A stretch of DNA of 64,000 nt from positions 225,504 to 289,503 of the forward strand of contig NMRA01000384.1 of assembly GCA_002633005.1 (NCBI GenBank), in the 5' to 3' direction. Shown piece after piece: positions 4,900-63,604 of this stretch; positions within the stretch are counted from its first letter, which is position 1, and every line of letters begins with the position of its first letter. The position numbers and the translations under genes were made by a program. The stretch is from Phoronis australis. Lineage: Eukaryota > Animalia > Phoronida. The notes beneath the pieces are model-generated. The model had not been told where the DNA came from. It saw only the letters and a program-made list of their open reading frames with translations, and made no database searches.

Positions 4900-5074
4900 A
4901 ATTGACCTATCACAAGCTCCACCCCCTTAATGTCGACTAACAAACAATAAGTTTCACCCGGCAACGTGTTGTTTGTCGGGTAAAATGGCGGCTTGGAAAC
5001 GAAGGTGTGTCAGTAATGATGCTTTCTAAATGGTCAGTTAAGCCTTCACTCAAAATCCTGGCGATAGGTCAATT
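4900..5074. mobile_element. MITE, copy 1 (TIR AATTGACCTATC...GATAGGTCAATT)
   Basis: Terminal inverted repeats are visible, and a diverged copy lies in the opposite orientation at 60865-61043. Confidence 0.7.
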
Positions 5075-36850: not shown

Positions 36851-38129
36851 TTTCATCTGTTACACGAATAATTTCACGGGGACACACGTGTTCAACTAAC
36901 CGTAAGCGATCCCCAAAGTCATTTAATTGTGTTTTATTTCAAAAGTGAAAGCAAGCACCATGGCTCGTCATCAGTCCACGACTCTCCGCGTTTGCCAGTC
37001 ATTTTGAAGTGTGATAGCTGTCTTGCTCATTGAAACATGCTCGACTGACCAATGCCCAGGGTCTATTTACTCGAAACTGACTGTGTCTGTGTTTCATCAC
37101 ATGTTGCTGGGCCTAGCAAGATGGACACTATATTCTCTCTTCTGATGATGGTGCGTGAATAAATGACACCGAGACATGTCAAGGTAATTTAAAACCGTAG
37201 TTGTTTTTACTAATATTCCTGGAAACTGCTCACATTCGAGATGCTCCCTGGCATGAGTTTCACAAGAGTTCATGTCCATGGTAAGACGATAGCCAGGGCA
37301 ATTGTTGAACTGCGTGGTTAGTATTTACTGAGTGCTGTTTCCGTGATGAACGTTCGGTCATCCCCTGAAGCTTAGTTAGTCAGTTGAAACTTACCCAAAA
37401 ACTTCGCCACTCATGTCACAGAATCTATTCGTAATTGCCTTTCATTTCATAATTCTAATTTCTATCAATTAAGGAAATCGTATCAAAAACAAGTGTGACA
37501 GAGAGATTGTGGTATCGCTGTTTACATTAAGTGATTGTTGTTCCGTTGTCGAAACGTTTGTTCTTCACTTCTAAATTAATGGTATTTCCGTATATTAACT
37601 GGTCAATGAAATGACCAATAACAGCTGACTGTGATTAAACTGTTTTGCAAATCTCTAATCCCACAAAGAGTTTTGTATCTAGGTTGGCATTTTCATTTGG
37701 TAGTGAGATCTGCTGCCAGTCTGCTTAAATTAGCAGATCACTGGACTTTTTTTCCGATCGGTTGCCGACCCGCTACCGACCTGTCCCATAAAAGTTTGTG
37801 ACCTCTGCTTTATACAACAGCTAGCTGTCTTTCCATACAGATTTACTATGTGTATTTTAGAAATTTGCACTTCGGTTTCAAATGCGTTTTTCGCATTTAG
37901 TTGCATGCGCCTAAGTCCAAATGTAATAGATGTGTCTCATATAGGCCAAAATACGTGCATAAAATTGTATATTATATCCTTCACACATACGACATACACA
38001 CGCGCGCGCACGTACAAACGAACACGCTCACCTACGTATGCATACTCACAATGCAAACACATACGAATTACCCAGAACCGCAGAGATCTGATGAGTCATT
38101 GTAAATGTTAGCAGTCACATATAAAATTC

Positions 38130-38395
38130 TCACTTGGAAGGGTCTTTTCCGCAGTGAATGCACCGTACGGAAGCTTCAAAGGGAGTACCTTTAGTGTGAA
38201 AGTACATGTGGCGAGTCAAAGTACTTTTAAATTCTGGCATTTGAAATGCATCGTTAAACTTCATCTTTGACAGTTTTCTGTTGACTATCGTAAGTATGTC
38301 ACATAAATGTAGATTTTTGTGTTTTTTCTTGATAACTTTACAAAGTTCATCGATGTACGGCGACCCCTCTTCAGCACATCGATGCGCATAGTTAC
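38130..38395 (-). CDS. Gene A terminal exon: caspase small subunit
   Basis: GNYAHRCAEEGSPYIDELC...LCDILTIVNRKL...QMPEFKSTLTRHMYF...CIHCGKDPSK*. Confidence 0.92.
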
Positions 38396-41300
38396 CTGTA
38401 AATAACACAGAAAAACGTTTTATGACCCAGTGCATGCAGGTAATCAGCATACCGAAATCCCATATTTAAACACAAGATCACCCTGGCGTTTTTAAAAACA
38501 GACTGACAAGACCTCAGTTTTCATCGTCGTAATAAAATAGTCGGGGACGCCTCAGGAATTGTCGCGGAAAAGATCAGGATAATAAACACCAGATGGTAGC
38601 CTAAGTTCAGTTTTTGAATATCACTGCATAATGCACTTTCATCTTCTGGTAAGTTCCATACACTATATTGTTACGAAATTCATTAAATGCTTTCAGTGAA
38701 CTTCCGTATAATGTGTTACCAACGGTTTACCTTCAGTCGTCGCGTATGCCGTGAGCATGTCTGAGTCAGGTGGTCGGGTCATAGGCCTACATGCATTTAA
38801 TGAAGCCCTGCGTCTGGCTTTTGCCGCGTCTATGTCGTTACTGCATGCTGTAGCGTCTGCTTCATCCACACGGCATGACTGATACACAAAGACTTTTGGA
38901 CATTCTGAAACAAATGAATCTTCTAACCGTAAGCATATCATGCGGTAACCAACATTAAAATGAACTATGAGTAATCAACGTCCATTATGAGAATAAGATG
39001 ACGTAAAAATACATTAGGCGAGTTACCAACTTTAAGATACTGGTGAAGAACCGTGTTGCATGAATTATGCTATTCATTAAAATTATAATAACAAAAACCT
39101 TTTAGAAAAGGCTTAGGTAATTATGTTAATGTTTTATAGGCATTTTTCTTTATTTTAATTGAATGTGTAAATTTCGTCTACTCCGTAAAATCATTTTTGT
39201 AGAACTCAAATGAGACTATGATAAACGGAAGACGAACGAGTGACGTATGTGACATATATCTTATAGCGTGCAAAAAACCACCAGACGAGTGCGAGTACCG
39301 ATACTTTTGAATAAAATAAAATAATATGTCTCTAAATTTTGAATAAACGCATTTCAAAAATAAGTTCACAGCATGTGGTGTACTAACTCATGAAGCCATT
39401 TCGTATTTAATGATTCCGCGTTGAGATTGAGTACGGAAGCTTGTATTGCTTGTGAAACAGAGTCGTTGTATTCACTTTCACCGATGAAACGTTGAACATG
39501 TCTAGTTGATTTACACAAACGTACCTCTCATTTTTGACAATTTGTCGCCACGGAAGTATGAGCATATTTCTTTGAATGTTATCAAGGGCCCGTCTATGGT
39601 ATATATGCCATCCTACAAATGATTTCGATGATAGATGCAGAAATATGCAGAAAATTACGAGTCATTACTGAACTTCATTGAAATAAAAGGGCGACGTGTT
39701 GCCAGCGTCTGCTGGCTTTTTTAAGCATGTGCGACCTCTGGTGGATTCGGTTGGAGTTTTAGGAAATCTGTGGGAAACTTCACTCAGAATCTTGTCGCAG
39801 TGGTAAGATAATGCGGTTGAATCTCAAATCTTCTCTTCGTTTCAAACCTGGGCAGGATTCTGACTTAAGTTTCCCGCCAATTTTCTCAACTCCAACCCGT
39901 CCACCAGAGGTCGCACATGCTTGAAAAGCCAGCAGGGCGCTGCCAAAACGTTGCCTTTTCATCTCAAGTAAGTTCATTAACAACTCATAACTTTCTGCGT
40001 GTTATATTCGTACTGAATAATTCATAGCATATATTGACTTAGATACAGAAATAGTTACGAATCACAATTTTCAAGTACGTCTCACTTTGAGAACCCACTA
40101 TTCGTGTGTTCAAGTAATCATAAATAACTCACATACTTAGCGCTTTCATCCTCTTACGGATGCATTTGATCGAGCGACGTTGTGTACGTCAAAGCTTCCA
40201 GTGCAGCCCATTCGAAACCAACGAGAGTTGCACAAATTCTCGAATGAATGAGAGCACACAATGAAAAACAATTTCACAACAGAAATATTTAGTTGTGCTT
40301 TCCCATTAAAATGATATCAGCAAAGTAAACAAACCGCTTTGTGAAGATGACGATCATTAAAAACTACACAGCCATTAAAATATATTTTATGAGTTTCCAT
40401 GTGATAGGACAATCTATGTCATTCTATGTGATTTTGACCAGTGCTTTAAAGTGTACACAACATGACTCTTAGTACCTCAAAATAAAATTTATTATTATAT
40501 CTTACTTGATTTCAGTGCCTTTAGTGCACAGCTCATAACGAAACACGCAAAAATTGAAAAAATAATAATTATGTACAACGTCATGGGTTGAACCCAAGTC
40601 ATTCGCTATACTGTTCGGATCAGAGACAAAGTGTATAGAGTGAAGAGAAAGCAAAGTACATTTAGCGTCGAGAAGGTTCGTAAAGGGATCAAAAGATATG
40701 TTTCCGGAGGCTGCAGCAACAGCAGCCAGGCGGAGAACGTCTCGGTGTTCCGAAGGACACCAAAGTTGCGCAGAAGTGGCATCGCTTCGTGCGCCGAACG
40801 AGAATGTGGGACGTCATCGTGGACCAAGCGATTCGGTCCGGGGCCACTCTGTGTTCTGCCCAATTTGAGGACTCGTGTTTCCACTCCAGTCACAGGAGAC
40901 GTTACGATGAAGGGCTGGTTCAATAAAGGACAATATTTATGATTCAGAAACATCAGCTCTTAATTCAGGATCGTCTCTGATGACTGAGTTGACTCGCTGA
41001 GCCCGAGGCCGCTTCTCTCGCGAGAGGATCCAGTTAGTAAGGCTCAAAATAGAAAAGTACGCAGCCGGAAGCACATTAAACTTGTTCTCGCTTTCGTGCA
41101 ACCCCATTTCCTCATCCTGGCCACCATTCCCGTACGTTTCTTCATAGTATTTGTTCAATTCTTGCTCATAATCGTCGTCGCTTTCTAATTCCCTGCTCTC
41201 CGTCATTGTTCAATGCTAGTCACTGATCTCTTGTGTTCAACCCATGACGTCACATGGCGGCAAATGTGAAAATTGGCAAAATTGAAAGAAAAATCAAAAT

Positions 41301-44300
41301 TTCGAGCTAATTACACAAAATAAACATGGGTTTAGCTGCATTTTACGTCATACATTTAGTCTGTGGCCACCGGTAATTCAAAATGTGCAAAATCCATGGT
41401 GTGTACTGTTTAAGGCTGTGTTGGACCTTATCGACCAGTCAGATTTTTTACTAAATATCTGCAAAACTGTAGATTTTAACTCAATGAAAGAATGTATTTT
41501 CGGACAGTGGAAACACTGTAAAATGTTGTTTTAGACTTTATACTAATCTGGCTCACGTTACCATGTGATTTTAGTTAAATTTAGCCAAAGGCAAGGTATA
41601 TCCATAGCAAAGCAACCGAATGACGAGCATGACCAAGAAATCTTGACAACCATATTACAGTTTTCAGTTCATTAAATCGTTTTTTAAGACACTATTTTCG
41701 CTTTTGAGAGGTTAAAGAATAGCAAATTTAAGATATGCAATCAATGTAATACAATGAGAATTTTACCATCGAGTGGCTCACCTTTTTGCCATGCGAGAGT
41801 ATGAAACAAATCAGCTGACTGAAGTCTTCATGCAGCAGTTTCTGTTGGACGCGCATAAGCATTTGTTCAAATTTGTCCTTGTTCAAGTCTTTGCCGTGTA
41901 ACACGATGTATCTTTCTCCCAAAATCTGCTGAAATGTTTTTGTCAATTCTCTCTCATCATTGTTAGAACCTGCAAGGTAAATCTGTATTGAAAGTGCCTT
42001 GGACAAAAAAAAAACAATAAAACGGTTGAACGTGCCGATATCCGTTTTATTCAATAACTAGAGTTCCTGCGAGGAATGGTAAGAACGATGTCCAAGCAGT
42101 TACCTGCTGTTGTTTATATTACGGATGCAACAAGGGAGCGCAACACTAGTAAGATCCGTCCAAAATTAGCGGGTTCAGCCTTATCGCTATTAAAGACGTG
42201 TTGAACCATTAAGTAGAGTGTTGAACTGAGAACCGAATGGACCCGAATTCAAATCCCATTGTACGTCAACAAAAACACAATTTCGAGAAAGTCCTGATCA
42301 TTAATCATCATGAAAGTGTACCATACCACACGTTCGTTGTTCTAAGAACGTTGTAACACCTGAAGATGGTCGGAGAAATGACCGACCGAAAAGTCGTGCC
42401 AAAGTAAGTACTCAAAAGATTGGTTTAAAAGGACCTAAATTTTAANCCAATTTGCGGCATAGATCACGACTAAACTGAAACTCAAGATACATGTAAGAAC
42501 GTTGAAGCACGAATGAGCTAAGCTGGCGCGCGTTACAGCTATAAACCATGGTGTGCCGAGCAGTTATACATATGCAAAATTCTATTGAAGAATTAGTCAC
42601 GTGGAAAATATACGCGGTAGAAGCTGGAGAGCAAACACATAAACCACCAACAGATGGCGAATATAGTCAGACTACAAACACAAGAGTGCGTCGGCACTTA
42701 CATAGTCTGTTTACTTTTAAACGGTGTTTCTTTATGTGGGTCTTACCATCTCTTCTTCTACGAGCCCTTTCCTCTTCGTTTTCGGCATAAAAATTTACGT
42801 TGTTGATAATAACAACTAGCCCTTTTCCCGCTCTTGGATAGTCACCTTTAAAATAACACACGCAAAAGAGTGTTGATAACATTATCAGAGTCGCCCTAGC
42901 ATGACGCCGCAAAAATCACGTACAGTAATGGCGGCTCAGTGGCTTCAAATGCGAACAAGGTTTGTTGCTGCTGAGTATAGTGTTAAGAGTTCCTAAATCC
43001 TTCAACATGAATTAGAAAATCACTAGCTTATCTAGGATGTCTCAACGAGACAAGGCTACATTTTTCACAAGAGAAACATGGCCTAACTTAAATTTTGCAT
43101 ACCACAACGAACTAATCATAGCAGAATTGATACATGCTTGCTAGGAGTAGACCTGGAGTTTTTCACTGTTCTCTTGGAGTTTTTTACAGTTCTATTTCTT
43201 TATAGCAGACAAAGCTTGATTGACGCGACCATGGTTTCAGGCTATTGATGACGTAATTTGTTTACAATGGAATACTTCAGAACATTTTAGCAAATTCCGA
43301 TCAGCAGTGATTAAAACACAACCGTCGTCTGGAAGGGGATATAGCCTAGTGGACGAATTGAATGATTGGATAGATACTGGCAAGTTCTAGAATTTGCTTG
43401 AATAGGCGAATAAGTTCCAGAACCTTGTAATGCTCAGGCATGGGTTAGTGAAAGTCACTTGAAAAAGTTAAAATTACAGTTGAGTTGTTGTTTCACAATC
43501 ACCAACTACAGCGTTAGTCAATAGAGAACCAGCTATAGAGACAGCAGGTGTTCATGAAAAATCAAGGCTTCCGGCAGCACTAGCTGGAACACAGAACAGA
43601 CATTATGTCGGACTTCTCGTTTCAGTACATTTGTGAACAAATGATTGAGATTAATAAAGTGATGAGCTCGAACTAATCTTAAGTCTATTATAGCAGTGAA
43701 AGCTATAAGCAACTGTCAACGAGAACTTGCGCCACCCATTAACGGGAAAAACACAATGGTCGATACTTGACGTATGGTATTAGTAACAACCGTCTTCATT
43801 CCACGCCTCCTTCCTACTGTGTCAGCCGGTGTTTACGGCTACATATCTGTCCCAGTGTCCATACGCCAGCACCGACAGGGCAGCTGCGGCCAAATTTGGC
43901 CTACAGTGCCGTGTCGGTGTAGCTACCAGAATTTTTAAAATAGGTCAATGGGTGGATATCGCAAAAACGTCAAATGAAACCAAATAAGCAGTAGGGCGTA
44001 TTTTTAGAAATGGGGGAAGTATTTTCGGAGTGTTTCAAATAAATATGTCTTTTTATTGCATGTTGTTGTATCCCACCACTGTATTTGTCCATACTTAATT
44101 TGCTTTCAAAAATTGTGCGTTAAAAACTGCCCTTCACATTGTGCTAATACGGTTAGTCATCAGAAAAATCATCTCATATCTCGTTAAATGATCGTCACTT
44201 GAGTAAAATCCCGATAACAATATATAATAGTTAGCCAAAGTAAAAACATTTTTACACTTACTCAGGATTAAGGGTAGAGTAAGTGTTAGCTTTCGATGAA

Positions 44301-47300
44301 ATAATGTTAGGATTAGGGTCACGGCCTTCAATCCTGGTGTGAAGTATTAGCTCTCGATCTCGGAGTTAGGATTGCGATTAGCTCGTTATCTTACTGTTGA
44401 GCCACCACCCATCAAACTCAGTGTCAAGACCACTGTTCCTCGATTTATGGCCTAAAGTCGATGAATCTCAATCTTATTTATCTATTTATTTAAACTTGTT
44501 TAAAAGACTGTGTTGATGTGCTAGCAGTGAAAGGCATTCTGTTCGGTTAGGAACGTTGAATGCGCGACACAGTGCGAGAACGCGGTCCAAGGATAATACT
44601 AGTCTGAAGGAGGATAATAGTTTTATTACATACTCTTCTGCTGATACTACTGAGTCTGTTACAATCCATGCGATCATACACTTATATAGTGACATACATG
44701 AATCATAACAGGATATAGTGAACAAACATGTTTACTACAATTCCTCATGTTGGGGGTGTATTACATAATGGTTAATTCTCTGAACTACTCCTACACATGC
44801 ACTCACTGGGATATGAGATCATACTCTAACAGACTGGGTGACCACGTCAGTGAATACACTGATTTTCAAATTGGTCCGGTTGGAAATAGTTACATGAAGT
44901 AAAATACAGAGAGCTATGTACATTAGATTAAAAAGATTGATAAATAAAATAAATTAGTTATAAAAATTAGTTAATACGGTATGTACAATTAGATGAATGA
45001 TTAAGAAAAAATAGAGTATAATAATGATGAGCTGAAACCTACAGTCTTGAACCGCGCACTCGGAAGTCGCCAGTATTTCTGTTTGAAGACGTGGACATTG
45101 GGCGCTTTCGTGACGGCAGTCCCCAGCCCGTTATAAGCGCCAGCACCTCTGTATTCAAAAGTTCTTTTGCTGCAATTGTTTTTAGGTTTATCTGGCACCA
45201 GGGGGGCCATAAACACTCGCTCTGGTATTGTAATTGAGAGAATCTCTGACTTATTTGAATTTAGTTGTGAGATAATTAGGTGCAAGGCTATGTGTGGCTT
45301 CCTTGTACACCATAAAGTTTGAATGAAAGGCAGGCTGCACCAACGGAGTCTATATAGTTCCCTACCAGCCTCCAAGCCTTGTTTTGTATTTATTTAAGTC
45401 TACCCTGGAGGTATGATGCACAGTTACCCCACACATCACAGTAATCAGACTCTTGTACTGAGTCTGAAGAGTAGCCTGATCGACATAGATCTTGACACTG
45501 TGCAAACGCCCAATCCGTTGTTAGTATCACCGCACCTCAATATGGTACATTGTACGCCAACAACTACTCTTCTAGAGATATACTGCAGCGTACTTCCCGC
45601 TAAAATAACAAAGAAAAATGGGCCTACCACCCAGTGACCTACTAGTCCTGGCACGTGAGGGCCAAAAGTTAGCAAAAGTGCTAAGATTTTAGGGTAATAG
45701 CTTCTGATCCATCGAGATCATAGCGTTATGACCACTGGCCGTCAACTTAATGTGAAGATTATGGATAGTATTATGTCTCCGTTGATTTAGGATTAGGATA
45801 ATAGGGTAGAGTGATTGTTAGTTTTTGATCTAATAAAGTTAGGGTTAGGGCCAAGGCCCATCATTCCTAGTCAGGGTCAAGACTACCGCTCCTCCATTTT
45901 AGGCCTAGAGTCGTTGACTCTTATTCTTAGGGTTAGAAACACCGCCCCTCAATTTTAGGGTTACGGCTATGACGCCCCTCGATCATAGTCTTAGGACTGT
46001 TCCCCTCGATGTTAGGGTTAAAGCTAGGGGAAGCGTCTTCCAATGTGAGATTAATTTATGACGTACAACTTCCGGAAAGGATGATACTGACTCCCTCTAA
46101 GTGCAACATACTCTCTAACACAACGCCACCTATACTGCAACGTGGCATGATGAACGACACGGCGTAGTTCAGTGTGTCGGCTTCAATGCGAATGCTTGGT
46201 CGGAAGTTTATCGATCACATCGCCCACACTTTCTAAGCACTGTACTTGTTTGGGCTTAAGCCACGGGATCGGGCTTCCCGTTAATTTTGTATGTTTCGAT
46301 CACTGTCCGTTTTAATAATTCTCATACCAAAATACCAAGTTTGCCGTAAGCTTGCAGCAAACATGCGGCAAGCTTGCGGCAAACAATTTTGATTGCAGCA
46401 AACCAGCCGCAATGTTTACAGGAGTTTGCCGCTACCCGCAACTCAGCCGCACACATTGCTGCAACCTTGCTGCAAACACTGAAGATTGCAGGAAAGTTGC
46501 GGCAAACTTGGTGATTCAAAAAGTGTTTGCGGGAAAGTTGCAGGAAACCTTATTGATGAAAAAGTGTTCGCTGAAAAGTTGCAGGAAACTTTACTGGTTG
46601 AAAAAGTGTTCTCATGAAACATAGTTTTTGTGGCAAAATTGCAGGAAACTTTAAATAAAAAATTGTGGAAAGACTACAACAAACTTAATATGTGAAAAAG
46701 TGCTTGCACGAAATTTGCAGTAAACTTCAATGTTTAAAGTGTTAGCATTAAGATTGTGACAATGTTAGTTGTTTTTTATTTTCTTAATTTCAGAGAAACC
46801 TCAAATCCCAGACCCTAAGCAGGACAGGTACCTATGTTAGATAACTTACCTAAATGTGACTTACTGTTGGGTAAGTGTTACGGGGAGATTTTATGTAGGA
46901 TGAACATGTCATTTATTTATCATTAAAGTATGATACAAACACATTAGAACTTGGGTTAACTATGTACATGAGAATAATATTACATGAGAAGTATTAGTAT
47001 TAATTAAGTATATAGTGGTTGCTGTGTAATTAATTAAGGGTATTAGTTGTTTACTGAAATTTATTGCCTCCTATGAGTGCATAGGAAATGAATCAGCATA
47101 TTTGTCTCTAACCATGTGTTTATGCTCTGCTAGCAGAATTATGTAACTTTAAATTCACCGGAATTGGTCAACTGTGGGGTTAGCCAGTTCTGACAACAAC
47201 AATAGTCTTGTTATTATTCAGCAGAAATTACTTAAAGATTTGTCTGTCCGTGACCATATTTGGCGAAAGCTTAGGTTCATATGTGGAATCTGATGATGTT

Positions 47301-50300: not shown

Positions 50301-53300
50301 GGCATTCGACATATTTTGCGCCATTTTCAAAGCTAATGAACACTCCGTTTGCGGCGCGGCCGTGGGTGCATTTCAACGCTCTGTGTTGCTGTTGTTAGTT
50401 TAGTCAGGTATTTAATATCATTGTTACAATTACCATAGATTTTGTCGTGCGTTCAGAATAAAACATTTTGGTATATTGTAATTAAGGCTTTCAAGTTGTT
50501 CTCTTTAGACACAATTTTGATTGTAATACAAGTACTATTATTAATTGCCACTGTAGACACTTTTATAGTTTCTGTTGTTCATTGTCATGTGTTTTTGGTT
50601 TGAAAACTATCACGTTAAATCCAGTATGCAGCTGATTCTGTATTTTCTTGTTTTAACAAGTGGGCATGCAATAAAAATTATTTGCCAAGGACATTTCTGC
50701 ATTAAATCGTTCATGCCACAGTTCAAGTATGTTGTAGTCTTGAAGCAATCTTTTTTTCAGGTGGTTCGCAGAAACTTCTTTATAATCCCATGAAGATGTT
50801 TGCGGCAACTGAGCTTGCAGCAATGTGTGCAGCTGGGTTGCAGGAACTGCTCCATACAAAGACATAGAGATGTTTGCAGCAAGCTTGCGGCCAACTTCAT
50901 CTGCATGGTAAAAGTTTGCGGTAAGCATGCAGCAAGCTTAAGGTAATGTTTGCGGCTGGGTTACAATAAATTTGCATAAACTCTTTGGTCAGAGAGGATT
51001 CCATGTGTTTGCGGCTGGTTTGCAGAAGCTTTTGCAGCAAGCTTGCCGCAAAATTGCGGCAAGTGTTTGCAGGAAGGCATTTTTGGTATGGGAAATTGTA
51101 ACTATTCAAGTTAAAGGTGGTCACCATACTACATAATAGCAAACTCAACGAGTTTCCCAGATTTCAACCAATGGGAATGACTGAATGTTATGACCTCAAT
51201 TTCACATGATAAACAACATTCCGCAGTAAAAGAAAGAGTAAGTGCAACAAAGAAACGCATGAACATACCTACTGCCATATCACTGTCATGGCCTTCTGTG
51301 ACCTGTAAGAGATACATAAAGCACGTGACTGTTTTTGAATTCAGTGAAACAGTAAGTAACACGAATCAGCATTAGTGTTAATTAATATACGAAATTTAAC
51401 ACCAGCTCCTTACGAGCTTCTAGGACCGCCACACTCCCAGCTAGAATGGAGGCGTTAAGCAATTTATAACACCGATGGTGCCACAGTGACATCTCAAGAG
51501 AGAGTCATGAGATAGTCGTGGAAAGTAAACCCTTGGTTGATAGTACATGGCCATATTTTAACTGCTGTCAACAATAGATTTAAGCGTGTGCAATTTGTGC
51601 AAGCATCACAACTAGAGCAGCAGATTAATCGTGACTGCCTGGCCCCCATAGACTATTTACACAATGTTGTTTTGTTTCTAATGAATAAATGATGAAGGTA
51701 GTGTGCTCTACAAGTAGTTCACGTAAAATAACGTCACGCGCAAACATGTTTACCTTCACTATCTGCCTCGTAATGAGTTGCTTTTTGGAATAGATGGATA
51801 ACTCTATCAAAGAGTCAACAGCTGATCCAAGATGAGATTTGATAAGTAGAGGCTCCGTTCCTTCGCAGACATTCTTGTCGATACGATAGCACCCTAGATC
51901 CACTTTTACTTGTTTTCTTGAGAGGGTATCCATGAATTCCGCTTCCACATTGATCTCGGCGCCGTCCACCATTTCTCTTGGAGCTTCGCTATCACACTGA
52001 TGGCTGAATGATTCGCTACCGCTAACATTTGGACGGTGGACGAACATTTCGAACATCAGCGTCTTCTCATCTATGCTTGTTACAACAGGACAAAACATAC
52101 AATCGAATGTAGTTTTAAAAGCGGAAATGACAGAACTGAGTTGCGCAGGCGAACACCATACCACAGAGTGCTTGCCATTATTTTGAGAGACGATAACCAA
52201 TTCTTTTCCTTCTAAACGACAATTACATTCTTTGGTGATGTTTGCTACCTCATCACGATGGGTCACCAAAACGTGTATGTCATCCTCAGCATTACTGCCA
52301 CCTGGTGTTTGTTTTAGTGTCGACTCCACGTTTATTCGAATTTCGCAGGGTTCCAACGCGGTTTCGTTTTCTTCTTGAAGTACTTCAATTTTTTGCGGGT
52401 GAATGACAACGTTGGCTTCCTTGATATTTCCTTGGATGATTTGTGACGAACTTTGGTAAGTGACTGTTACGTGTGCGCTGCAGTTGGCCTTTGGTTTCAC
52501 TGTTACACCGTTACACTCAGGATAGTGATGGTTGTCATTTGGTCTAATATCCCCTAAAATAGATTTGAAATACAATGGTATCATGTTGTTCATCTTTTTA
52601 ACGGCAAGAAATCGGTTACTGGCAGTTTCATTCTTGGTCCATCCAAATTACCTATGTCTCTACTGGCGGATCAAGGAAATCGTAGGGTAGTCCAATAACA
52701 ATTTTCAAAAATACCCCAAAATGACGTGTCATGGCGTTTTTATTATTTCCTCGTCGTGTCCGATGGGGAGGGCTGTCCCATAAGTCCAGTCATGGTCTTG
52801 CTGTAAAACTGAATAACAGCTACTGGGCTACACCGCCAATTCTCGCAAATCTGTGTTTTTCAGGTTAAAGAGGAGTGAATTGTCCTCGTTGATGAACACC
52901 GCCGTTAGACAAAACTCGCTGAATAAAATAAATAGAAGTGGCCCAACTGCAATTACAGTAGTTGATTAATTTCAATCATGTACTTTCCCCCTAACCCAAT
53001 AGAGGGAGCACATAATACTACGAGCAATATTAAAGTCCTTGTCTCACGCGTTGTTAACCCTTATTACATGGTTAGAAGATGTTATAAGGATCCAAGAAGT
53101 ACCTACTCCATAACTAATACACGATCCGTACTCGAAAACAGTTTAAATGAACGCGCCACTCACGATTCGCACCCGAAGAAACACCGCCATTTTGAACTTG
53201 CCGCAAACCCGGAAGTACAATTCATTCAGGAACCCAGGCCGAGAAAACGCCGTCAGTGCGACTGGANNNNNNNNNNNNNNNNNNNNNNNNNNNNNNNNNN

Positions 53301-56300
53301 NNNNNNNNNNNNNNNNNNNNNNNNNNNNNNNNNNNNNNNNNNNNNNNNNNNNNNNNNNNNNNNNNNNNNNNNNNNNNNNNNNNNNNNNNNNNNNNNNNNN
53401 NNNNNNNNNNNNNNNNNNNNNNNNNNNNNNNNNNNNNNNNNNNNNNNNNNNNNNNNNNNNNNNNNNNNNNNNNNNNNNNNNNNNNNNNNNNNNNNNNNGT
53501 TCCTGAACTGATGAGCCGGAAATGTGGGTACGGAAATAACCGATGACAACCGGTAACCATACGCTCAGAGAGAAGGGTCAAATACTGTTACAAAATCGCT
53601 TTTGGCAAGAAAGGCGAAAAGAATATAAAGAAAGGGTGTCGAAAATAAGAATTTATGTAGTAAGTATTTTCGGATACTGGAACCACATGGGCAGTTTGCA
53701 ACAAGGAATTTAAAGTCAGCAAGTTTTTGATTCCCTACCTAAAATCGTTGATTTTGACAAGCAAAGTAGTACACTCAAGCTTGGCAACTCCACATAGTTT
53801 CAAAGGAGGGTCAATATAAACATGGTTGCTTGCTTGTAATATGACTTTCCCACTAAGATTTTTAATTTTGGCCGGCTAACTAATACAGTTAATTATTCTC
53901 GTTGTTCTCTGTATGTGACCCTGCTTTTCGTTGGCTAGTGTAAAACAGAAGTTAAACAATGAGAGTGTTGCTAAGTGAACGACCTGAAATGACCTACTTT
54001 GTTACCTCATTTTCATGAGGCAAGATTAAATAGAACACTGCTAACTTAAAAAGTTATAAGCAGTGCTGTAGTGGGGCGTAGGCGCACGTAGGCGAAGCCA
54101 ACCACGTTTTAGCATTAGGACGTAGCGCCTACGCACCGTAAGTTACGTTCAGTGCTCAAGGTGATACGGTGGGCTTTGGGCGCCCACTTACCTCTAATTT
54201 TACCACTACAGCACTGGTTATAAGCTTGGTTTATTCACAAATTTGAGCTTGGTAACTCCCCTCCCCCAAACAGTGATCAGCTTTGGGTGATGTTGTTTAC
54301 TTCTAGCATGACTTTTCCATCAAAACTTTATTTGAAAAACATTTATTTCTATGCTTCAAATTTATCCTCGACGGCACTTGTAATGGAATCTGAATGGCAA
54401 TTTTGACATTTTACTTGAACATCCCCTCTCACGCCACTCATGCGAGTCTTTGCGGATTTTTCCGGAGTGTTCTCCGAAATTTTGGTGATAAATTTTTATT
54501 GGAGTAAAGAAAGGTAACAACTCCGTAATTTTGCGTTCATGTGATTTATTTTCATGATTCTGGAAAAAATCGTAAAAATTTCTCGAATGAATGTGCCTTA
54601 TGTCGTTATGAATAGGCAAGAACTCAGATCAAAACGATAGGCGTATTGTTATCAACGACATTTATCAGTTTGAAAGCACATTGCCGAAAAATTCCTGAAT
54701 ATGCTTTTGTTTTTCGTAACTCGGGCAACGAATTTGAGGATACATTTGTACCAAGACTATGGGTTTGTTTCCTGTATAGTGATTCAAAACGCAAGTCAAA
54801 AATCTCGTCTCCCAATTTTGAATCATTACTAAAAATGGTTTAGCCATGTAAATATACATGAAAGTACACCACAGCCTCAAAATGACTCATACAAATGCAT
54901 TCTAAAAGACTTTTTGTTAAACAGAGTTATAGGTATTTTTAAGAAATATTTTTGTAAGATGAGTCATTTTTCCTAAAAAGGGCCTCATGAAAATTTCGTT
55001 TTAATTGGCACTTACATTCTCCCTCCATGTCGTCAAAGTCTTCCACTTCCGGAAGTTCTCCTTCAATGTCGTCCATCGCCTGGGAACTTTTGCGTTTCGC
55101 CTTCATATCCAGTTCATTGAAGAATGTCTGCAATATATAAAACTAAGTTTTGTACACAATATCGATAAAAAAACGGACAAAAGATATGTTTATTATTTGT
55201 GTTGAATTAAGTCCCCTGTTTACAGGGGCCTTAATCAAACATACAATTGCGTCGTGATGTCACAGTCATTCCTATTTCTAGTTTGTTATCATTACACCAT
55301 CCACAGCCAACAAAGAAATCATCGATCGAAACTTTTGGGATTTCTTTTATTTGTGTCATCTATATTGCTTTAATCATACAGATCACACTGTCTTCTAGAC
55401 CTCAACGATAAATACCTGTTTACAACCCCATCATTACGTAAGCATACAATACATGTTGGTGTCAGTTCAAAGTTAACATTGCCTGATCCTCCTAAGCTAA
55501 TTAAATCTTTAAGAATATTTCTTTAAATTTGTAGACAGCTACTTTACTGTGTAATACAAGTAATTGCTGGCATTGTCAAGTAAAATTTAAGTAAGTGATG
55601 GGAATTCTGAGTAATTTAGCTGCACACAATTTGGTTAAATCACTTGTAAAATTATTCGTTGCAACATCGAAAAAATCCATCCCGGGCTTACCTGAAACAA
55701 TTCTTCCATTTTTTCTCGCATTTTTTTGCCACTTAGCGATTTCCCACATATATCGTCAGGTGTTTGTCTGTCCTGAAAATACAAGTGAAACGCGAACAGT
55801 TGAAAAATCCTCACCACAGCACCGCAAATGGCAACCTTGTAATAGTGTTAATTAGTATCACAAAATGGCCACTACAGGTATATTGCGCAAAACACGTTGA
55901 ACCTGTCTGAAAATTGAAAGGCGACGTCTTATCCCATAGGCGGATTTAGGGGGGGGGGGGGGGNCCGTCGTCTGCTCCACTGTGCAATGAAGAAAATTTA
56001 CTTCATTTTTTAAAGAAAATGGAACCTGAGTGACGATGAAAAAACAGAAGCTGCTGGTAAGATGTGAATTTTAATCGAAGCCTTAGTGAATCACTCAGAA
56101 ACTCGCAATACTCTCTTTGTCAAACCTTATCTTAAGACGATTTCCAAAGCAATCCCGTCATTATTGCCAACACGAAAAAAGGATTTGGTCTTTTGGGCAT
56201 TTGAACACTATTTTAAATAAGACAAATTTGTTAAGAATTGATGGCACAAAATATAAAAAACGTGTAATAAGCATTACAAAAAGAAGCAGATTTCGCGCGC

Positions 56301-59300
56301 AAACGCTGTGGACCATAAATAAGTAGGTCTCTTAGAAAGAGGTTGGTAGTTAAGTTGTGGTGGTGTAGTGGTAACGCACGCGCCCTCTGTCCGCCAGGTC
56401 GTGAGTTCAAGTCTTAGGTTCTTGCAGTTTGTTCTGTTCGAAACGTTCTCCGTTTTTTTTTTATTTTTTGCCTCTTTTGTCTTCAGGAATCAAGGAAAAT
56501 GCTTGATTTTTAGATGTAAAAGCAGAAAAATTTCTTGGGTGGAAAGGGGGGTTTGCCCCCCCCCACTTCGGTGCTATGCGCATCTACAATCGTGGTTCAG
56601 TTTGCGCAAATGCTTACAGCCGGACAAAAAGTTGCCCCCCCCCCTTGTGATATCCTAGATCCGCCACTGTATCCCTAATACAAAACTATATGCCGCATTT
56701 CATGAAAAACCGAGGAGGCGCTCAAGAGATTCAAGAGCAAAGATAAAAACACACATTCCACTAATCTACTGAAGAAACAGAAGTAAAATGTAAAAACTAA
56801 AATTATCCACTGAGGGGCAAAGCTGTAACATGATCAGATCCATCGAAAAGTCGTGGCAACCGTTGTCACATTCATAGGAAAACACTTGCCACAGTTTCAC
56901 TAAGGTCCGGCCAAGGATTAATGAGTTACAGCTGTGTTCGAAAAATATGACATTGGAGGAACCACACCCGTGAACACGTCAGAAAATCAACGTCTTATAA
57001 GCAACACATCTGCCAATTTTCAAAATAATCCTTTGAGCGGTTTGGCAAATGATGATAAGGTGGCCACCAGGTGGCGCCAAATAAGTCAAATCCGTTCGAA
57101 ATGGGAAAGACATATTCTCTTCTTAATACAAAGCTATTTAACGTTGTTCTTGAAAATCCTATCAATGAACTTTTACAATACAGAGGCAAACGCAAAGAAA
57201 AAACAATTTGCCACAGGAGGAGAAAGCGGTACTCGGATCGGTCCAAAACTTGTTATCGGGTGTCTTCAGCTCCATGGAAACACATGTGACAAATTTCCTT
57301 CACTGGGCTAGAGAGAAACAGCCGCTGATGCAAACAAAAACAACATTGCACCTATAGGGGAAGAGTATTCGGACTCCTCCGAAAATCACCCTCAGTCATG
57401 GTTTTCTCATAAGGATTACAGCTGCAAATTTTCAAGTTCACTATTACTCTTTGAGCGGAATGGTGGATAAAGGGGAGGACGCCAGACTAACGGATTCAAA
57501 AATAACAAAAATTTCCACAAGGTGGAGCAAAATACGTCGAACACGGCACATCCTCGATTGACGGTGATTAAAGGAATGGGTCACGATGGATCCGCCAACG
57601 AAAAACGCAACCCTGCAGTCACAACTACGGGCTTTTGGCACTACATTAACTGGAAAATTCATAAAATTATGCATTTTAACATTTTTTACATCAAAGTGGC
57701 ATTGACAAACCAGCCTCGTCCCCCAGTCTCAAGATGTCACTGATCGGCTTAGTTTTTGAGGGCTTTAAGTGATGAAGAGGAATTTACTTGTCAGTATTCT
57801 GACGCATTTTTGCGGAACCAGTGATATTAAATTCCATGCTGGAGTATAATACAAAAAATCAAAATAAGCGGTATTTAAGCAGCAATTTAAGATTTAAATC
57901 ATTGAAAAAACGAAGCCTTCCATTCAAAAGCAGGATAATTCTTATCATGGTGCTTTCAATAAAACAGAATTGAAGATGAGAACGCGAGCACCTTTTATTT
58001 GAATTAAACAATAACAAAAATTGTAACCTCTGCTGCCGAATCACGATTGGCAGCAACAACAACGCCTCTGCAAAATAGTGAAAATTTTGCCTTTAGATTT
58101 TGTTTATTCTCTGAAAAAATAATCAAATTTATCGTATCGGCAGCGCTACTAAGGCCAAACCAAAATCTGTAAAAGCTTCAAACTGCAATAAATCAAATTA
58201 ACGTAGGTGAATCATCCCGTTGAACCAGTCACAGAACTCTATTCGGTCCACGGTTTTATCACATGGAAGTTTGAAACGTTAGCTCGCCGTGCGAGAAACC
58301 AAATAAAGAGTTCCACTGCACGAAGTTAACCGAAATTATGCTTTTCAAAAATGGCGCTGCATGGGGTTGGAAAAGTATGTAAACAAGTTCAGGAAAGAGT
58401 GTTCACACTTTGAATAAAGTCCAAATCTAATGCCAAAATGTCTTGAGTCCCTTTCATATTGACTTAACTCCTGTCTGAGAGGGGCGTCAACGTATACTAG
58501 CTGCGAAGTTAGCTGGACCGTGCATACTGTTTTAGGTAGTTAATGAACATCGAAGTAAACGGTAGGTGACGCTGTCGTCATCGAAGTTATCGCTAGGTAG
58601 CGCTGCACGCTAAGATTTTTTCAATTTGACAATTTGGGAACATTTACATGTGCTAAATGACATAAAACTTATTTTTAAATCGATTGGTGATTATTAGAGC
58701 AAAATATAAGTAACTATTAGTGACAGCACTACACTGTAATTGTTGACGGTAATAGTGGCACCCAGTGATAACTTCGATAGGACCAAAGTTAACCGTTCCT
58801 ATTTCACCGCAGCGTCGACGTTGCGCTGTTAAATCCACCTGGTAACTGCGATGGTAACTGGAACTTCGCGTCTTTTATTACAGTTTTCTACACTCTTGGA
58901 ATACCTGATTAACAACAGCTATGTCGGCGCCTTCTCTAAGTAGAATGTCTGCCACTTCTAGTTGACCAAAACGGGAAGCGTAGTGAAGAGGTGTGTTGCC
59001 CTTCTACAGAAGTTACAATTTGAAGACTATCGATCAATTTCATAAGAAGAAATCTGGATGGCTCAAAGTCATTTAGCAGGTTAAGTGATGATGACGTTTG
59101 AGCCACCAGCTTATGAAGTGAAACTGGAACCCATTTTATCAATGACCGTAAGGCCCATGCCGGTTGGCTGAAGACGGTAGTAATTTATTTGCAGACAATT
59201 TATGAATTTAGCACATTAAAAAATTGCAAAGTTTCGCTTTTCTGGAAAAAGTCAGCCTCGGGTTTCTAATAATGTGTCTGCGACAGTCTTAGTAATGATC

Positions 59301-62300
59301 GGACTTTGACAAAACGGGCCCCAATTCACAAGTGTGCAGAAGTGTCAATAAGTAGTTGTGTGATGTTCCCCCATCCTGATGTTACGCGGCCCTCGCCTTC
59401 CCTACGTGGTTCCCCAATATTTCTTTGGCCGGGTATACTTCAGCCAAGTGTTCCTTCGGCTGAATGTTCTGTGGAAGAGATGTTCTCGAACTCGAAGTTT
59501 TACTTATCGTTAGCTTAATTTCATCGTTGAAAAAGTGCAAGTTTAATGTGCAGTTATGAATGAACGCACGCATATCTTCAAAAAGATATCACTGCTGTTA
59601 CGGATGGTAGTGCTTGCGCCTAATTTACTGTGGGTCGATTCTGAGTGAATGAATATTGCTTAGAGAGAATGGAGTAAATTTTTAACGTGACCGGGTGCAC
59701 AGCTGGGTGGAGGAACATCAGTCGAAAAACAGTGAGGAGGAGAACTACGGAGGGTGGAAATACCGATTTAGACCTCTATTGACTTTCCTGAAGCACCAGC
59801 CGTGTTCGCCAATTTAGCTGACTTTGCCGACAAAGTGTCAAAATTGTTCAAAGTTTTTGGGTTGGCGGGGATAATAGAGCATTGATTTATTTCAAAATTT
59901 CAAGTTACGCGCCACCTTTGTTACTTAAGGTAGCATTTCATCTAAGGTCATTGTTGATAGTACTTCTAAGTTTTAACCTAAGAATTTTGTATTTTGAAAA
60001 CGTATTGAACGCAAGAACTAATAATGGTCACGAAAATTATACAACAATGTCAGTCGTCAGGGGACTTCATTCAATAAATTGTATTTTTACGGAGATTGTG
60101 ACTTTCTAAAACCGCTTAGAGGTGGTGTTTCAGGTGTAGACCTATATTACTCTACAAGTGCAGTCTCCATAGACAACACATAGAACGGACGCACGCGCTC
60201 CTGCCGCTGACAACTTGACGCCATATTGGAGAGTGTTTCTAGTCACGTGACACGGCTAATTGCCGTGTAAACAAACGGGGCAAATTGCCCTTTTCAAAGC
60301 GCGATATCTAACAAATAAAGAGGCCCAAGAGTGTGATTTTTTCCAGAAACATAAAAACATGTGACGTAACACTTACATGCGTTTTTAAGAGTCAATCAGT
60401 CTATAGGGAAAATATCAAACTAGTGGAAGATCGCGAGTGAGATTCTCGAGTGGCCTGAGCGGCTGCACGCTTGTCAATCCACTGCAAGCGTTTTATTTTT
60501 TCGTTTTTTCAACAGAAACCAGTAAGATCGCGCAAATTTAACATTTAATTCGTGTTGCTCGTTACAAATACATTATATCCAGGAGACGTGGTGCTCACTT
60601 GGGACGTACTTTCGTGTTGCCCCAATAGGAGACTTCTCAGTCTGAAAAATGACCCCGGGTAACTTTCTAAAATTAAAATATGACCCGGGTCGCTTTTAAT
60701 AGGGGTCTAAATTTAATGTGAACTTCTGTGAAAACTGACCTCATTGGGGTCATGTAAATGAATGACACTGAAGTTTTTAAAGTTCATTAGGGCGTTCTCC
60801 CGTTCAGTGACTTCACTAGACGGCCAGCGGTTGCGGGCGTGTCATAACATCTAGCTCCTTTGCTAATTGACCTATCGCCAGGACTTTGAGTGACAGCTTA
60901 ACTGACCATTTAGAACTCGTCATTCTTGAAACACCTTCGTTTACAAGCCGCCATTTTACCCGACAAACAACCCGTTGCCGAGTAAACCTTATTGATTGTT
61001 AGTCAACATTACGCAAGGGGGCGGAGCTTGCGATTGGTCAATTGCTGAGCACAGTCTTTTGTCTGGTAGAAAAATATGCAGTTCAGTTATCTACAAGACT
61101 TATTACCGATGACCTGTGAACACAGTCGAACCCAGTGCGTTGGTACGTTCGGATAGAATAGTTAGATTGTCTTATCTTCGACTGTAGTTGGGCGATTTTG
61201 ATGATTCAAAAACTATAAGCATGATCAGAGTATGTGATGGGGAATTCAGAAATGTCATTGGTTCATGTTCAAACATTTTATAACTTATCTCATGTTTAAA
61301 AGCACAGCCCAATGAGGCAATAAGATACATGTACGATCTCATTGGAGATTAGACCAATTATCGAACAAAAATGCTGACCCTCCATCCCCTAATTGCCAGA
61401 ATGGAATTCTGAATCGTCAGTGTACTAAGATATTGGCTACATGTGCGGTGCACCATAGGGGTCTGGGGAAGTTACAGTGTATAGCCTTCCCCCACTTTTT
61501 TCAGTCCATGCACCGTCATCCGCCCAACTTGTTGTGCTATGCAACCTAACAAATTTGAATCAAAGGGACAAGGTCGTAATGTAAAAAGCAAAGAACACAG
61601 ACTCAATTCTTTCCTGTGCATCGCTCGGGATTTTCAACATACAAATATTCTTCTCTCATGCACAGTATTCCTCTCTCACGGATCTGAAGTCCTCCCAAAC
61701 AAGCGCCAGGCACTTGTTGGCGTTTTGTAGTATCCCCATACCGCGTAATTATGTGCTCACAAAGAGATCATCCCCTCTCCCACACATTATTTCGTATCGT
61801 TCCTATCCATCCCCGCCCTTAATCAGATATACACAGAGCGCACTCTGCCGAAAAATTTTAAACAAATTCTTCTCTCAAGCACGCTTGGCCTTCTCATGGT
61901 ATCAAATTTGACTTTGATAGTAAGAAAACGCGGCTGCGATCGGAAGATTCTTAACATGTGGCCAAGTATTTTGGATTAGTCTTCATGCAGTTCAGTAGTT
62001 AGATATCATATCCTGGCACGAGCAGTGCAAAAATCGCCAGAACAGCCAATTTGGGCAACTGAATGAAGGGTGACTGTTAGAAATATAGTGATTGTTTTCG
62101 CTTCAACCCAAATCCCCCACACCATATTCCTGGTCTGCACGCCGTTCAGTACTTTCACTCCCTAATTGCGTCATTCATTGAAAACGCAAAATTGTCCTTG
62201 CCGCGCACCAACTCAGGTGACCCCCAGACCTAAACATCAGCGTATCGAACATTGTTGAAAGATCGCCAATTGCGGGTAACCTGCTTATCCTAATCCCCTG

Positions 62301-63604
62301 TTGCGGGGGAACCGTTGAGTAATGACGTGACAGATTTTCACAGACGTGAGGTACTTTTTTTCATGGGCTGAAAACTCTTCACATTAAATTTAGACCTTGT
62401 GAAAAAACTAACTGGGGTCATTTTTCACGAGGTCATTATTTAAAGCTACACTGGCTCGGTTAGGTATTTTTTCACTCGGTTTCGAGTGGGAAATTCTGTA
62501 TTTCGGCTATACTATAGCTCGGTTGCGCAATTCAGTCGTACAGGTTTGATATTTTGGTTACTACGCACTTTACTTTTTGCGCAAGTTTTGAGTCGCAAAA
62601 CAAAGAGCTCGTAAGCAAGCAGTGCAAATCTACAAAATTTCCAATATCAACCTCGACATAAGTACAGATTTTGCAGTGATTTATTTGTTTTGATACAACA
62701 GAAAACATCTGATTTTGGAATACGTATTAAGAAATGAATTTTTAAAGCAGTATATATTTCAATAGAGAATACATTATTCTTTTAGATGTATTGATTTGGA
62801 TGGCTGGCGAGAAAGTTCGAGGATGTTATTTTTCAGTACGAGTAAAAATACATATGATTGTCATTAATACCAAATATTTACTTAATTACAATTAACAAAC
62901 ATTATCATCATTGGATAACAGCATATGCTGGTCAATAACTATCTTTTTAATTGATCTTATATGGCCTCAATCACCAAGACTGATGTGGAAACAACGCATA
63001 GTCATTCCGCTTAAACTTTGTTGGCAGAACATAAAAACCTAGTGGCAGCACCACTAAGCTCCAAGGCCGAACCAAAAAACCCATGACTCAAGGGCAGGAC
63101 CAAAAATAATTTTTTGGCTGCAGGCATGACACTGCGAGCCCCCGGATTTTCTGATTGATGCCGTAGGGCTCCCAGTGTTTTCCGCCATTTTTGTCCTGTG
63201 TAACACTCTCCAATATGGCGTCATATTGACAACGCGAGCTTCATGGATCTGAGTGGCGCGCGCCCGGTCTATGTATTAAGATGTCTATGGCAGTCTCTGT
63301 TTTAGTTGGTTATTTGCTAGAAATAAAGTTTAGCATAGAATTGCAGAAATTATAACTAAAATTATATTCAACTTAATGCAATGGATTTCATCAAGAGATG
63401 CCCGGTTTTACGGCTAATTTTCCTCACCGACTCAGGGATAACAGTTCGTGTTTTGCGTTTGGTGAACACTCACTTCGAGCAAACAACCTCCATGTAACCA
63501 ATTACCTCATCGGGAGCTGACACGTCTGCTCCGCAAATAACCAACAACTCCACAACTTCCCAGCGACCGTTCAACGCCGCCCAGTGTAGTGGTGTCCGTT
63601 TGTC
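38130..63604 (-). CDS. Gene A (5'-partial, 11 exons, about 680 aa in window): ankyrin repeats - acidic linker - ZU5/UPA-like domain - caspase (peptidase C14A p20+p10)
   Basis: In-frame GT-AG exons with matching phases: 63506-63604, 58905-59003, 55692-55772, 55016-55127, 51754-52553, 51269-51302, 42747-42845, 41782-41969, 39525-39612, 38731-38904, 38130-38395. Caspase motifs GLVVIINNVNF, ILSHG, PKVFVYQSCR, DMLTAYAT, GSPYI and QMPE are present. Confidence 0.85.
38731..38904 (-). CDS. Gene A caspase exon with catalytic Cys and inter-subunit linker
   Basis: Phase 1-1; ECPKVFVYQSCRVDEADA...PPDSDMLTAYATTE. Confidence 0.92.
39525..39612 (-). CDS. Gene A caspase p20 exon
   Basis: Phase 0-1; DGIYTIDGPLITFKEICSYFRGDKLSKMR. 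It is missed by the ORF track. Confidence 0.9.
39647..39998. mobile_element. Foldback MITE (inverted arms of about 150 bp)
   Basis: GCAGAAAATTACGAG...AAGCATGTGCGACCTCTGGTGGA is mirrored by TCCACCAGAGGTCGCACATGCTT...CTCATAACTTTCTGC. Confidence 0.85.
40450..41409 (-). mobile_element. Non-autonomous Kolobok-like DNA transposon
   Basis: TTAA flanks both sides. Imperfect TIRs AGTGTACACAACATG / CATGGTGTGTACTGT and an inner inverted ACGTCATGGGTTGAAC. A decayed ORF has an acidic N-terminus and an RRSPPGCC...LRKHIF fragment reminiscent of Kolobok accessory proteins. Confidence 0.55.
41782..41969 (-). CDS. Gene A caspase exon with catalytic His
   Basis: Phase 1-0; GSNNDERELTKTFQQIL...FSQLICFILSHGKK. 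Confidence 0.92.
42747..42845 (-). CDS. Gene A first caspase exon
   Basis: Phase 1-1; GDYPRAGKGLVVIINNVNFYAENEEERARRRRD. Confidence 0.92.
43188..43755 (+). mobile_element. Solo-LTR-like repeat, copy 2
   Basis: Shares blocks with 20555-21151; boundaries are approximate. Confidence 0.5.
45001..45660 (-). mobile_element. LINE (CR1/L2-type) reverse-transcriptase 3' relic
   Basis: PKNNCSKRTFEYRGAGAYNGLGTAVTKAPNVHVFKQK is the typical C-terminal motif of CR1/L2 ORF2. The upstream part is decayed. Confidence 0.65.
46321..51092. mobile_element. Non-autonomous TIR DNA transposon of about 4.8 kb (EnSpm/CACTA-like ends)
   Basis: CTCATACCAAAA at the left end and TTTTGGTATGGG at the right end, with arrays of AAGCTTGCGGCAA-like subterminal repeats at both. 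Internal tandem repeats are at 47570-47705 and 48555-48870. Confidence 0.7.
51269..51302 (-). CDS. Gene A 34-nt adaptor micro-exon
   Basis: TCTCTTACAG|VTEGHDSDMAV(G)|GTATGT converts phase 0 to phase 1, exactly as needed to join the caspase exon. Confidence 0.8.
51754..52553 (-). CDS. Gene A large exon: ZU5/UPA-like region
   Basis: 800 nt, phase 1-0. Homologous to 18569-19332: IHPQKIEV/LHPQRICV, DEVANIT/DEVTDIT, FDCMFCP/FRVKFCP, HQCD/HQCD, IDKNVCE/VDRKICE, RQIVK/SRTVK. Confidence 0.85.
53267..53498. other. Assembly gap (N run) inside a gene A intron
   Basis: Run of N. Confidence 0.99.
54061..54216. mobile_element. hAT-type MITE with 8-bp TSD
   Basis: TIR CAGTGCTGTAGTGG...CCACTACAGCACTG flanked by GTTATAAG on both sides. 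Confidence 0.9.
55016..55127 (-). CDS. Gene A acidic linker exon
   Basis: TTGCAG|TFFNELDMKAKRKSSQAMDDIEGELPEVEDFDDMEGE|GTAAGT; phase 0-1. Confidence 0.8.
55692..55772 (-). CDS. Gene A C-terminal capping ankyrin exon
   Basis: TATTTTCAG|DRQTPDDICGKSLSGKKMREKMEELFQ|GTAAGC; 81 nt, phase 0-0. Confidence 0.8.
55935..56669. mobile_element. Non-autonomous element with CA(G/T)xGGCGGAT-type ends containing a tRNA-derived head
   Basis: CATAGGCGGATTTAGGGGG...CCTAGATCCGCCACTG ends, with an internal A box TGGTGTAGTGG and B box GAGTTCAAGTC at about 56361-56413. Confidence 0.55.
58905..59003 (-). CDS. Gene A ankyrin exon
   Basis: 99 nt, phase 0-0: KGNTPLHYASRFGQLEVADILLREGADIAVVNQ. Confidence 0.92.
60168..63289. 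mobile_element. Non-autonomous P-element-like transposon with nested insertions
   Basis: CATAGACA...TGTCTATG termini, a perfect 8-bp TSD GCAGTCTC (60160-60167 and 63290-63297), and subterminal inverted TGACGCCATATTGGAGAGTGTT. Confidence 0.8.
60865..61043. mobile_element. MITE, copy 2 (family of 4900-5074)
   Basis: Reverse-complement match to 4900-5074. Confidence 0.7.
63506..63604 (-). CDS. Gene A ankyrin exon (most 5' exon confidently seen)
   Basis: 99 nt, phase 0-0: DKRTPLHWAALNGRWEVVELLVICGADVSAPDE. Confidence 0.92.

Follow-up and report, generated by a model that had tools for sequence, protein, structure and literature searches.

Can a ZU5-UPA stalk gate a protease on its own? Animal caspases are normally activated by way of death-fold adaptors and, to our knowledge, the UPA domain of NLRP1, CARD8 and PIDD1 always acts through a death fold. 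Work on these proteins leaves the question standing, and a caspase wired directly to such a stalk would test it. A candidate for such a protein is encoded in the stretch of DNA analysed here, 64,000 nucleotides of the phoronid Phoronis australis (contig NMRA01000384.1), referred to as the window. Here, gene 1 joins a probable ZU5-UPA module, likely placed behind ankyrin repeats, to a caspase. A neighbouring gene, gene 2, has the same stalk and a predicted trypsin-like end, and this pairing is a more telling fact, and a stronger lead, than gene 1 alone. The initial annotation described the anatomy of gene 1 well but missed gene 2, its tandem paralogue.

Gene 1 lies on the minus strand and is modelled as 11 exons from 63604 to 38130, giving an open frame of 679 amino acids whose sole stop is the terminal one. 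All ten introns are GT-AG and their phases are compatible. The order of the domains is two ankyrin repeats, a linker, a module of 266 amino acids, a micro-exon of 11 residues and a complete caspase. The two ankyrin-repeat exons (63506..63604, 33 codons, phase 0-0, and 58905..59003) are each 99 nucleotides long, have predicted splice sites and match Pfam Ank with E-values of 4.7e-10 and 1.7e-10 (39.6 and 41 bits, cut-off 21.1). They are followed by an exon with the terminal half of an ankyrin repeat and the start of the linker (55692..55772, placed by its frame and an RNA joint), an acidic linker exon (55016..55127), the module exon (51754..52553) and the 34-nucleotide micro-exon (51269..51302), which has strong splice sites and includes two Asp residues.

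Four public runs were aligned over 37000-56500, the first (X1) as contigs and the other three (X2-X4) as raw reads. No run is on record as RNA, the RNA origin of X1 is presumed, and 15 of the 45 joints are listed for the runs. Among these, joints in the X1 contigs fall at four predicted introns from the linker exons to the first caspase exon, skipping 564, 2462, 451 and 8423 bases, and three of the four are marked as GT-AG on the minus strand. The 564-base joint connects the half-repeat exon to the acidic linker exon, which is itself covered by X1 contig record 7, while the 2462-base joint spans an intronic assembly gap (53267-53498, 232 N). The 451- and 8423-base joints lie on the two sides of the micro-exon. 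As both have a depth of 37.2 and a short side of 34 letters, one contig most likely leads from the module across the micro-exon into the caspase. Over the gene 1 exons, raw reads from X2-X4 are thin and match the strand of the gene, as with 2.83 vs 0 for X2 at 51973-52623, and three RNA runs show low expression.

Gene 1 and its key splices, from the linker through the first caspase exon, are real. The initial annotation had proposed that the module is joined to the caspase p20 via an 11-residue micro-exon, and had pointed to the splices 51754->51302 and 51269->42845 as the ones to check; both are seen in X1 contigs at the predicted sites. The same joints also counter, for at least one transcript, the concern that a separate transcription start in the 8.4-kb intron feeds the caspase exons.

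No death fold was found between the stalk and the enzyme. RNA joins module, micro-exon and caspase directly, and Pfam gave no match to a CARD, DED or death domain in 95 frames of the window, as the initial annotation had stated for the neighbourhood of the catalytic domain. These frames are 44 of the 46 minus-strand frames of at least 40 amino acids in the 8.4-kb intron and 51 hand-picked frames elsewhere in gene 1; Pfam has little power for short and diverged sequences, and the window ends at base 64000. Only three symmetric cassette candidates of at least 90 nucleotides exist in the 8.4-kb intron, all within frames that lack a Pfam match. A hidden death-fold exon in the mature mRNA was the second concern, and none was found within the window; exons past base 64000 are outside its scope. 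The 8.4-kb intron also contains a 107-base tandem repeat in about three copies (48556-48867).

Further 5' exons of gene 1 lie beyond base 64000, outside the window. Gene 1 could be an ordinary adaptor-recruited initiator if one of them encoded a death fold, with ankyrin and ZU5-UPA inserted between it and the caspase. Combinations of death folds with ZU5-UPA and ankyrins are frequent in invertebrates (PMC8195603). We find this explanation hardly likely: the caspase here takes the position after UPA that the death domain occupies in UNC5, ankyrin and PIDD, the ankyrin array of gene 2 starts with a capping-type repeat, and the few upstream frames scanned contain no Pfam death fold.

The caspase domain extends over five exons. 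The large subunit begins at 42747..42845, an exon placed by its frame and the 8423-base joint. It continues with the exon of the catalytic His (41782..41969, Peptidase_C14, PF00656, E-value 1.3e-6), found in an SHG motif that aligns with SHG of caspase-3, and with a short exon between His and Cys (39525..39612), placed by frame and phase. The fourth exon (38731..38904, E-value 0.006, below the cut-off) carries the catalytic Cys in QSCRV, the inter-subunit linker and the start of the small subunit. The last (38130..38395, E-value 4.5e-10) encodes the small subunit and the stop, and an X1 contig with the 3' untranslated region lies at 37953-38397. In total, two of the five exons are above the Peptidase_C14 cut-off of 21.4 (28.7 and 40 bits), one is below it, and two have no match alone. 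The short exon is joined to the next one in four X3 reads with four differing letters, which may represent an allele or a paralogue. The closest solved structure to the small subunit is caspase-6 (E-value 4.8e-8, PDB sequences), and a word-based search with this exon (5 candidates) gave no relative at E 0.001. Judged by its fold and its catalytic pair, the gene 1 product is a caspase. Inside a caspase intron, the region 40255-41556 has high depth on both strands and many differences; it is probably a dispersed repeat, and its frames of 90-117 amino acids have no Pfam match.

The identity of the module depends on gene 2. It is labelled ZU5-UPA because it is homologous to the gene 2 module, which itself matches ZU5/UPA clusters. 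In tblastn, the two modules match with an E-value of 9e-16 and about 25% identity over most of the module. Their alignment score is 175 vs 34+-5 for shuffled sequences (maximum 53 in 500 shuffles), and both have splice phases 1-0, ending at the same phase. In an atlas search, the gene 2 module matches ZU5/UPA clusters at 0.96, 0.95 and 0.94, followed by UNC5B, ZU5-UPA_2 and FIIND clusters at 0.92. At 0.96, 185 of 256 features are shared, nine of the ten best family matches agree on ZU5/UPA/FIIND, and the top clusters are mostly echinoderm. For calibration, a first match of at least 0.95 arises for about 1 in 100 shuffled proteins, and the recognition value of the gene 2 module, 2189, is slightly under the tool mark of 2300. 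We take the gene 2 module to be ZU5-UPA with high confidence and the gene 1 module with only slightly less; the latter would likely be a diverged, non-cleaving form. On this homology, the stalk is common to genes 1 and 2.

The two modules differ at the position of ZU5 self-cleavage, which was placed by visual comparison with bacterial ZU5 domain ends and with PMC9162469. Here gene 1 reads NNG, with the Gly aligned to the serine, vs KFS in gene 2. Since gene 1 has no serine at this position, its chain likely stays whole. Self-cleavage of the gene 2 product at the predicted KFS is uncertain.

Gene 2 spans 33504-12741 on the minus strand, and one model reads 934 amino acids without a stop. In this model, nine ankyrin exons are followed by a linker and the module, then by a connector exon and a trypsin-like protease in three exons. 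The ankyrin exons are at 33504-33403, 31872-31774, 29136-29038, 27912-27814, 26393-26295, 25104-25006, 23834-23736, 23016-22918 and 21914-21816. The first is a capping-type repeat, and those in 21816-31872 are of two roughly alternating types, with nucleotide identities of 62-81% within and 44-55% between types. The array apparently grew by duplication, since its exons fall into two types that are alike within each type, and the exon pair at 23834-23736 and 23016-22918 arose by a recent duplication. The linker exon (20194..20455, phase 0-1) is placed by its frame and low stranded read depth, and the module exon is at 18569..19332 (phase 1-0). For the connector exon (phase 0-1) there are four candidates within 16678..17520, with splice-site scores of 15.3, 9.1, 8.0 and 5.8, of which the best is 17117-17027. 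A 34-nucleotide micro-exon (16711-16678) was considered as the counterpart of the one in gene 1, and is not secure as it has the lowest score of the four.

The protease of gene 2 is predicted from an open frame over three exons, which carry the motifs of the triad, His (16172-15978), Asp (14648-14332) and Ser with the stop (13079-12741). It matches Pfam Trypsin_2 below the cut-off (E-value 0.002). The best of five PDB matches of the middle exon is FAM111A, a weak one (E-value 0.049), and the last exon has none. Low numbers of minus-strand reads cover the module, the linker and the 3' end. In our model, the gene 2 stalk is likely fused to the serine protease. A candidate start exon of seven codons, one of two candidates, is at 37234-37254 (minus strand), some 900 bases past the stop of gene 1.

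We suggest that the gene 1 product is an intracellular one-chain sensor, whose caspase would be switched on when ligand-bound or clustered stalks pair two caspase domains. We give this reading an even chance. The caspase would occupy the place of the death domain in ZU5-UPA-DD proteins of the UNC5, ankyrin and PIDD type, and exon shuffling at the intron following UPA could have brought it to that position. In UNC5 and ANK2, ZU5-UPA sequesters the death domain by folding back (PMC9162469). The likely uncleaved stalk of gene 1 would restrain its caspase in the way known for the death domain of UNC5 and of ankyrin-B. The UPA of NLRP1 and CARD8 self-associates, which lowers the signalling threshold, and caspases are activated by dimerisation (PMC7794386). 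Dimerisation of the caspase would follow from ligand binding to the ankyrin repeats or from UPA self-association, and self-cleavage at the Asp residues in the micro-exon and the inter-subunit linker would come next. FAM111A is also activated by dimerisation (PMC10920703), and gene 2 likely controls its FAM111-like serine protease with the same stalk.

Several results weigh against the sensor reading, starting with the module. The gene 1 module has no Pfam match at E 1, no ZU5/UPA match among PDB sequences, and a bacterial Ig as its sole atlas match, at 0.79. An hhalign search with a two-row module query against 14 bacterial ZU5 domains, a weak test, gave scores at shuffle level. AlphaFold models of the module have predicted local distance difference test (pLDDT) values of 33 and 40, too poor for use, and three fold searches listed no ZU5-UPA protein, only generic Ig/FN3-like beta-sandwiches (Z at most 4.9). 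Word-based searches with the module (1602 candidates) and with the alignment of the two modules (7373 candidates) found no relative, and a metagenome scan found none among 127 pattern matches. Three apparent signals were rejected. Against seven bacterial ZU5 domains, hhalign scored 23.3 vs a shuffle maximum of 15.9 (probability 8%), in a register judged wrong, and the signal was gone with 14 domains. HMMER against 1.84 billion representatives gave two weak matches, both repetitive bacterial Ig-like proteins and taken as artefacts, and a match to the Abraxas MPN domain (E-values 0.41 and 0.02) was weak and taken as chance.

It can be argued from these blank or generic direct tests, and from the gene 2 recognition value under the mark, that the module is an unrelated pair of beta-sandwiches, which would leave the comparison with PIDD, UNC5 and NLRP1 empty. 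We consider this very unlikely, given the rarity of such a first match among shuffled proteins, the agreement of nine of the ten family matches, and a homology between the two modules far above shuffles.

The caspase itself adds two further points on this side. In PMC2575513, the caspase Cys motif is given as QACxG, and QSCRV of gene 1 differs from it at two places, so the activity may be low. The domain might even be weak or dead, a decoy or scaffold that binds or inhibits true caspases in the manner of cFLIP. The departures from the motif would fit this, as would the strong divergence of the domain, the small-subunit exon that found no relative above, and the low expression. Set against this, the catalytic His and Cys are kept, and so are the Gln before the Cys and a small-subunit Arg that aligns with caspase-6, both of which we presume to have a role in the Asp pocket. 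A decoy is in our view improbable.

The second point is that the best PDB matches are the effector caspases 6 and 3, with no pointer to an initiator, and ancestral effector caspases are also among them. An effector-like caspase would already be a dimer, activated when an upstream protease cuts the linker, and the ankyrin-ZU5-UPA part would only place it, or restrain it until that part is cut off at the micro-exon. The Asp residues in the micro-exon and linker are consistent with such cutting, and ZU5-UPA modules also act as scaffolds (PMC9162469). However, the PDB matches are weak, and since an unrelated protease has this stalk too, the switching is more likely done by the stalk. In addition, caspases in PDB are mainly vertebrate, and initiators typically have a long N-terminal region. 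We see this as an unlikely explanation, though one to be taken seriously.

As for the one-chain sensor, other points against it concern the transcripts and the mechanism. The ankyrin exons likely precede the module in the same transcript, but by predicted splices and with the 5' end beyond the window; in X1 contig record 7, the sequence continues for about 157 letters upstream of the exon at 55692..55772, a length that would fit the ankyrin exons without showing them. No RNA joints were seen in gene 2, where the reads are too few, and its connector exon has four candidates. Self-association of UPA was shown for NLRP1 and CARD8 after cleavage, a step that gene 1 probably lacks. The sensor role is plausible, and is put forward as a proposal.

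The initial annotation had gone further and read the gene as a single-chain analogue of the PIDDosome or inflammasome. The anatomy behind it stands, with a likely ZU5-UPA module spliced to the caspase and no death fold between them. The analogy does not: it fails at two defining steps, because there is no death fold in the window and a Gly is found at the position of the ZU5 self-cleavage serine. Gene 1 is placed outside the PIDD, NLRP1 and CARD8 platforms, yet it may work like a shortened one.

Together, the two genes may belong to an undescribed family of one-chain animal immune sensors, in which an ankyrin array that changes fast is followed by a ZU5-UPA stalk. At one intron, different proteases activated by dimerisation would have taken the place of the death domain, a caspase in gene 1 and a FAM111-like antiviral protease in gene 2. 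This proposal is tentative, and we hold it at somewhat less than an even chance. If it is true, ZU5-UPA would act as a proximity switch of general use, without any requirement for a death fold. Animals would then exchange the effector at the end of a constant sensor, as is the case in fungal NLRs and in conflict systems of bacteria. Gene 2, in which an unrelated protease follows this stalk, would serve as a natural control for such a swap, and in it a FAM111-like enzyme would be governed by a sensor.

The window as a whole is animal genomic DNA with about 39% GC and long introns. It has an assembly gap of 876 N at 5914-6789. Self-complementary stretches at 35793-36279, 26998-27373, 39647-39998 and 29496-29643, with arms matching at 68-88%, are probably miniature inverted-repeat transposons. 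An inverted pair of 184-base copies with 87% identity is located at 4895-5074 and 60865-61048. On the minus strand, 70-1509 contains broken protein-like frames of 70-110 amino acids without a convincing Pfam match, which we take to resemble a decayed transposon-associated gene.

How does gene 1 relate to known systems? Caspases with an ankyrin prodomain have been reported from parasitic flatworms and from the annelid Alitta virens (PMC11463336, which cites Lee et al. 2014). As in these, ankyrin repeats take the place of CARD or DED in gene 1, where two in-frame upstream Ank exons are connected by predicted splices. Unlike these, gene 1 has the 266-amino-acid module between the repeats and the caspase, and ZU5 has no occurrence in the main text of that paper.

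In UNC5, ankyrin-B and PIDD1 the death domain follows ZU5-UPA (PMC9162469). Gene 1 resembles this supramodule in that a ZU5-UPA stalk comes after the repeat or receptor region and the effector directly after UPA, while an enzyme replaces the death domain. PIDD1 and ankyrin-B have two ZU5 domains, whereas gene 1 has one, judged by the length of the module. PIDD1, NLRP1 and CARD8 self-cleave at a His/Ser-Phe-Ser motif (PMC9162469, PMC11760013), and unlike PIDD1 gene 1 is without the His-Phe-Ser motif. As in NLRP1 and CARD8, ZU5-UPA adjoins a caspase-activating output, and the clustering of UPA is an idea borrowed from them (PMC7794386, PMC11760013). After self-cleavage, these two proteins set UPA-CARD free, and CARD filaments serve to recruit caspase-1 in trans, as described in the same papers. 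In contrast, gene 1 has no CARD found in the window, no predicted cleavage, and its caspase in cis.

For gene 2, the closest comparison is FAM111A (PMC10920703; PDB 8s9k, 8s9l), an intracellular trypsin-fold protease with a His-Asp-Ser triad that is dimer-dependent and antiviral. FAM111A carries PIP and ubiquitin-like parts instead of ankyrin-ZU5-UPA, and the match is, as given above, a weak one.

ZU5, UPA or FIIND occur in expanded invertebrate families without the fusion of gene 1, as far as the available parts of PMC8195603 and PMC3482391 go. We found no description in the literature searched of an ankyrin-ZU5-UPA-caspase or ankyrin-ZU5-UPA-FAM111 protein, while the supplements of PMC11463336, PMC8195603, PMC3482391 and PMC2575513 may list such architectures. 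Fusions closest in logic to gene 1 are the "shortcut" proteins of amphioxus, LRR-caspase and TNFR-caspase, which have been read as an adaptor bypass (PMC2575513). Gene 1 likewise fuses a sensor-type domain directly to a caspase, whereas the amphioxus proteins have a different sensor, a canonical QACxG, and no ZU5-UPA stalk reported in the available text. Thus, sensor-caspase fusions and ankyrin caspases are already known, and it is the likely combination of ankyrin, ZU5-UPA and caspase that would be new in gene 1.

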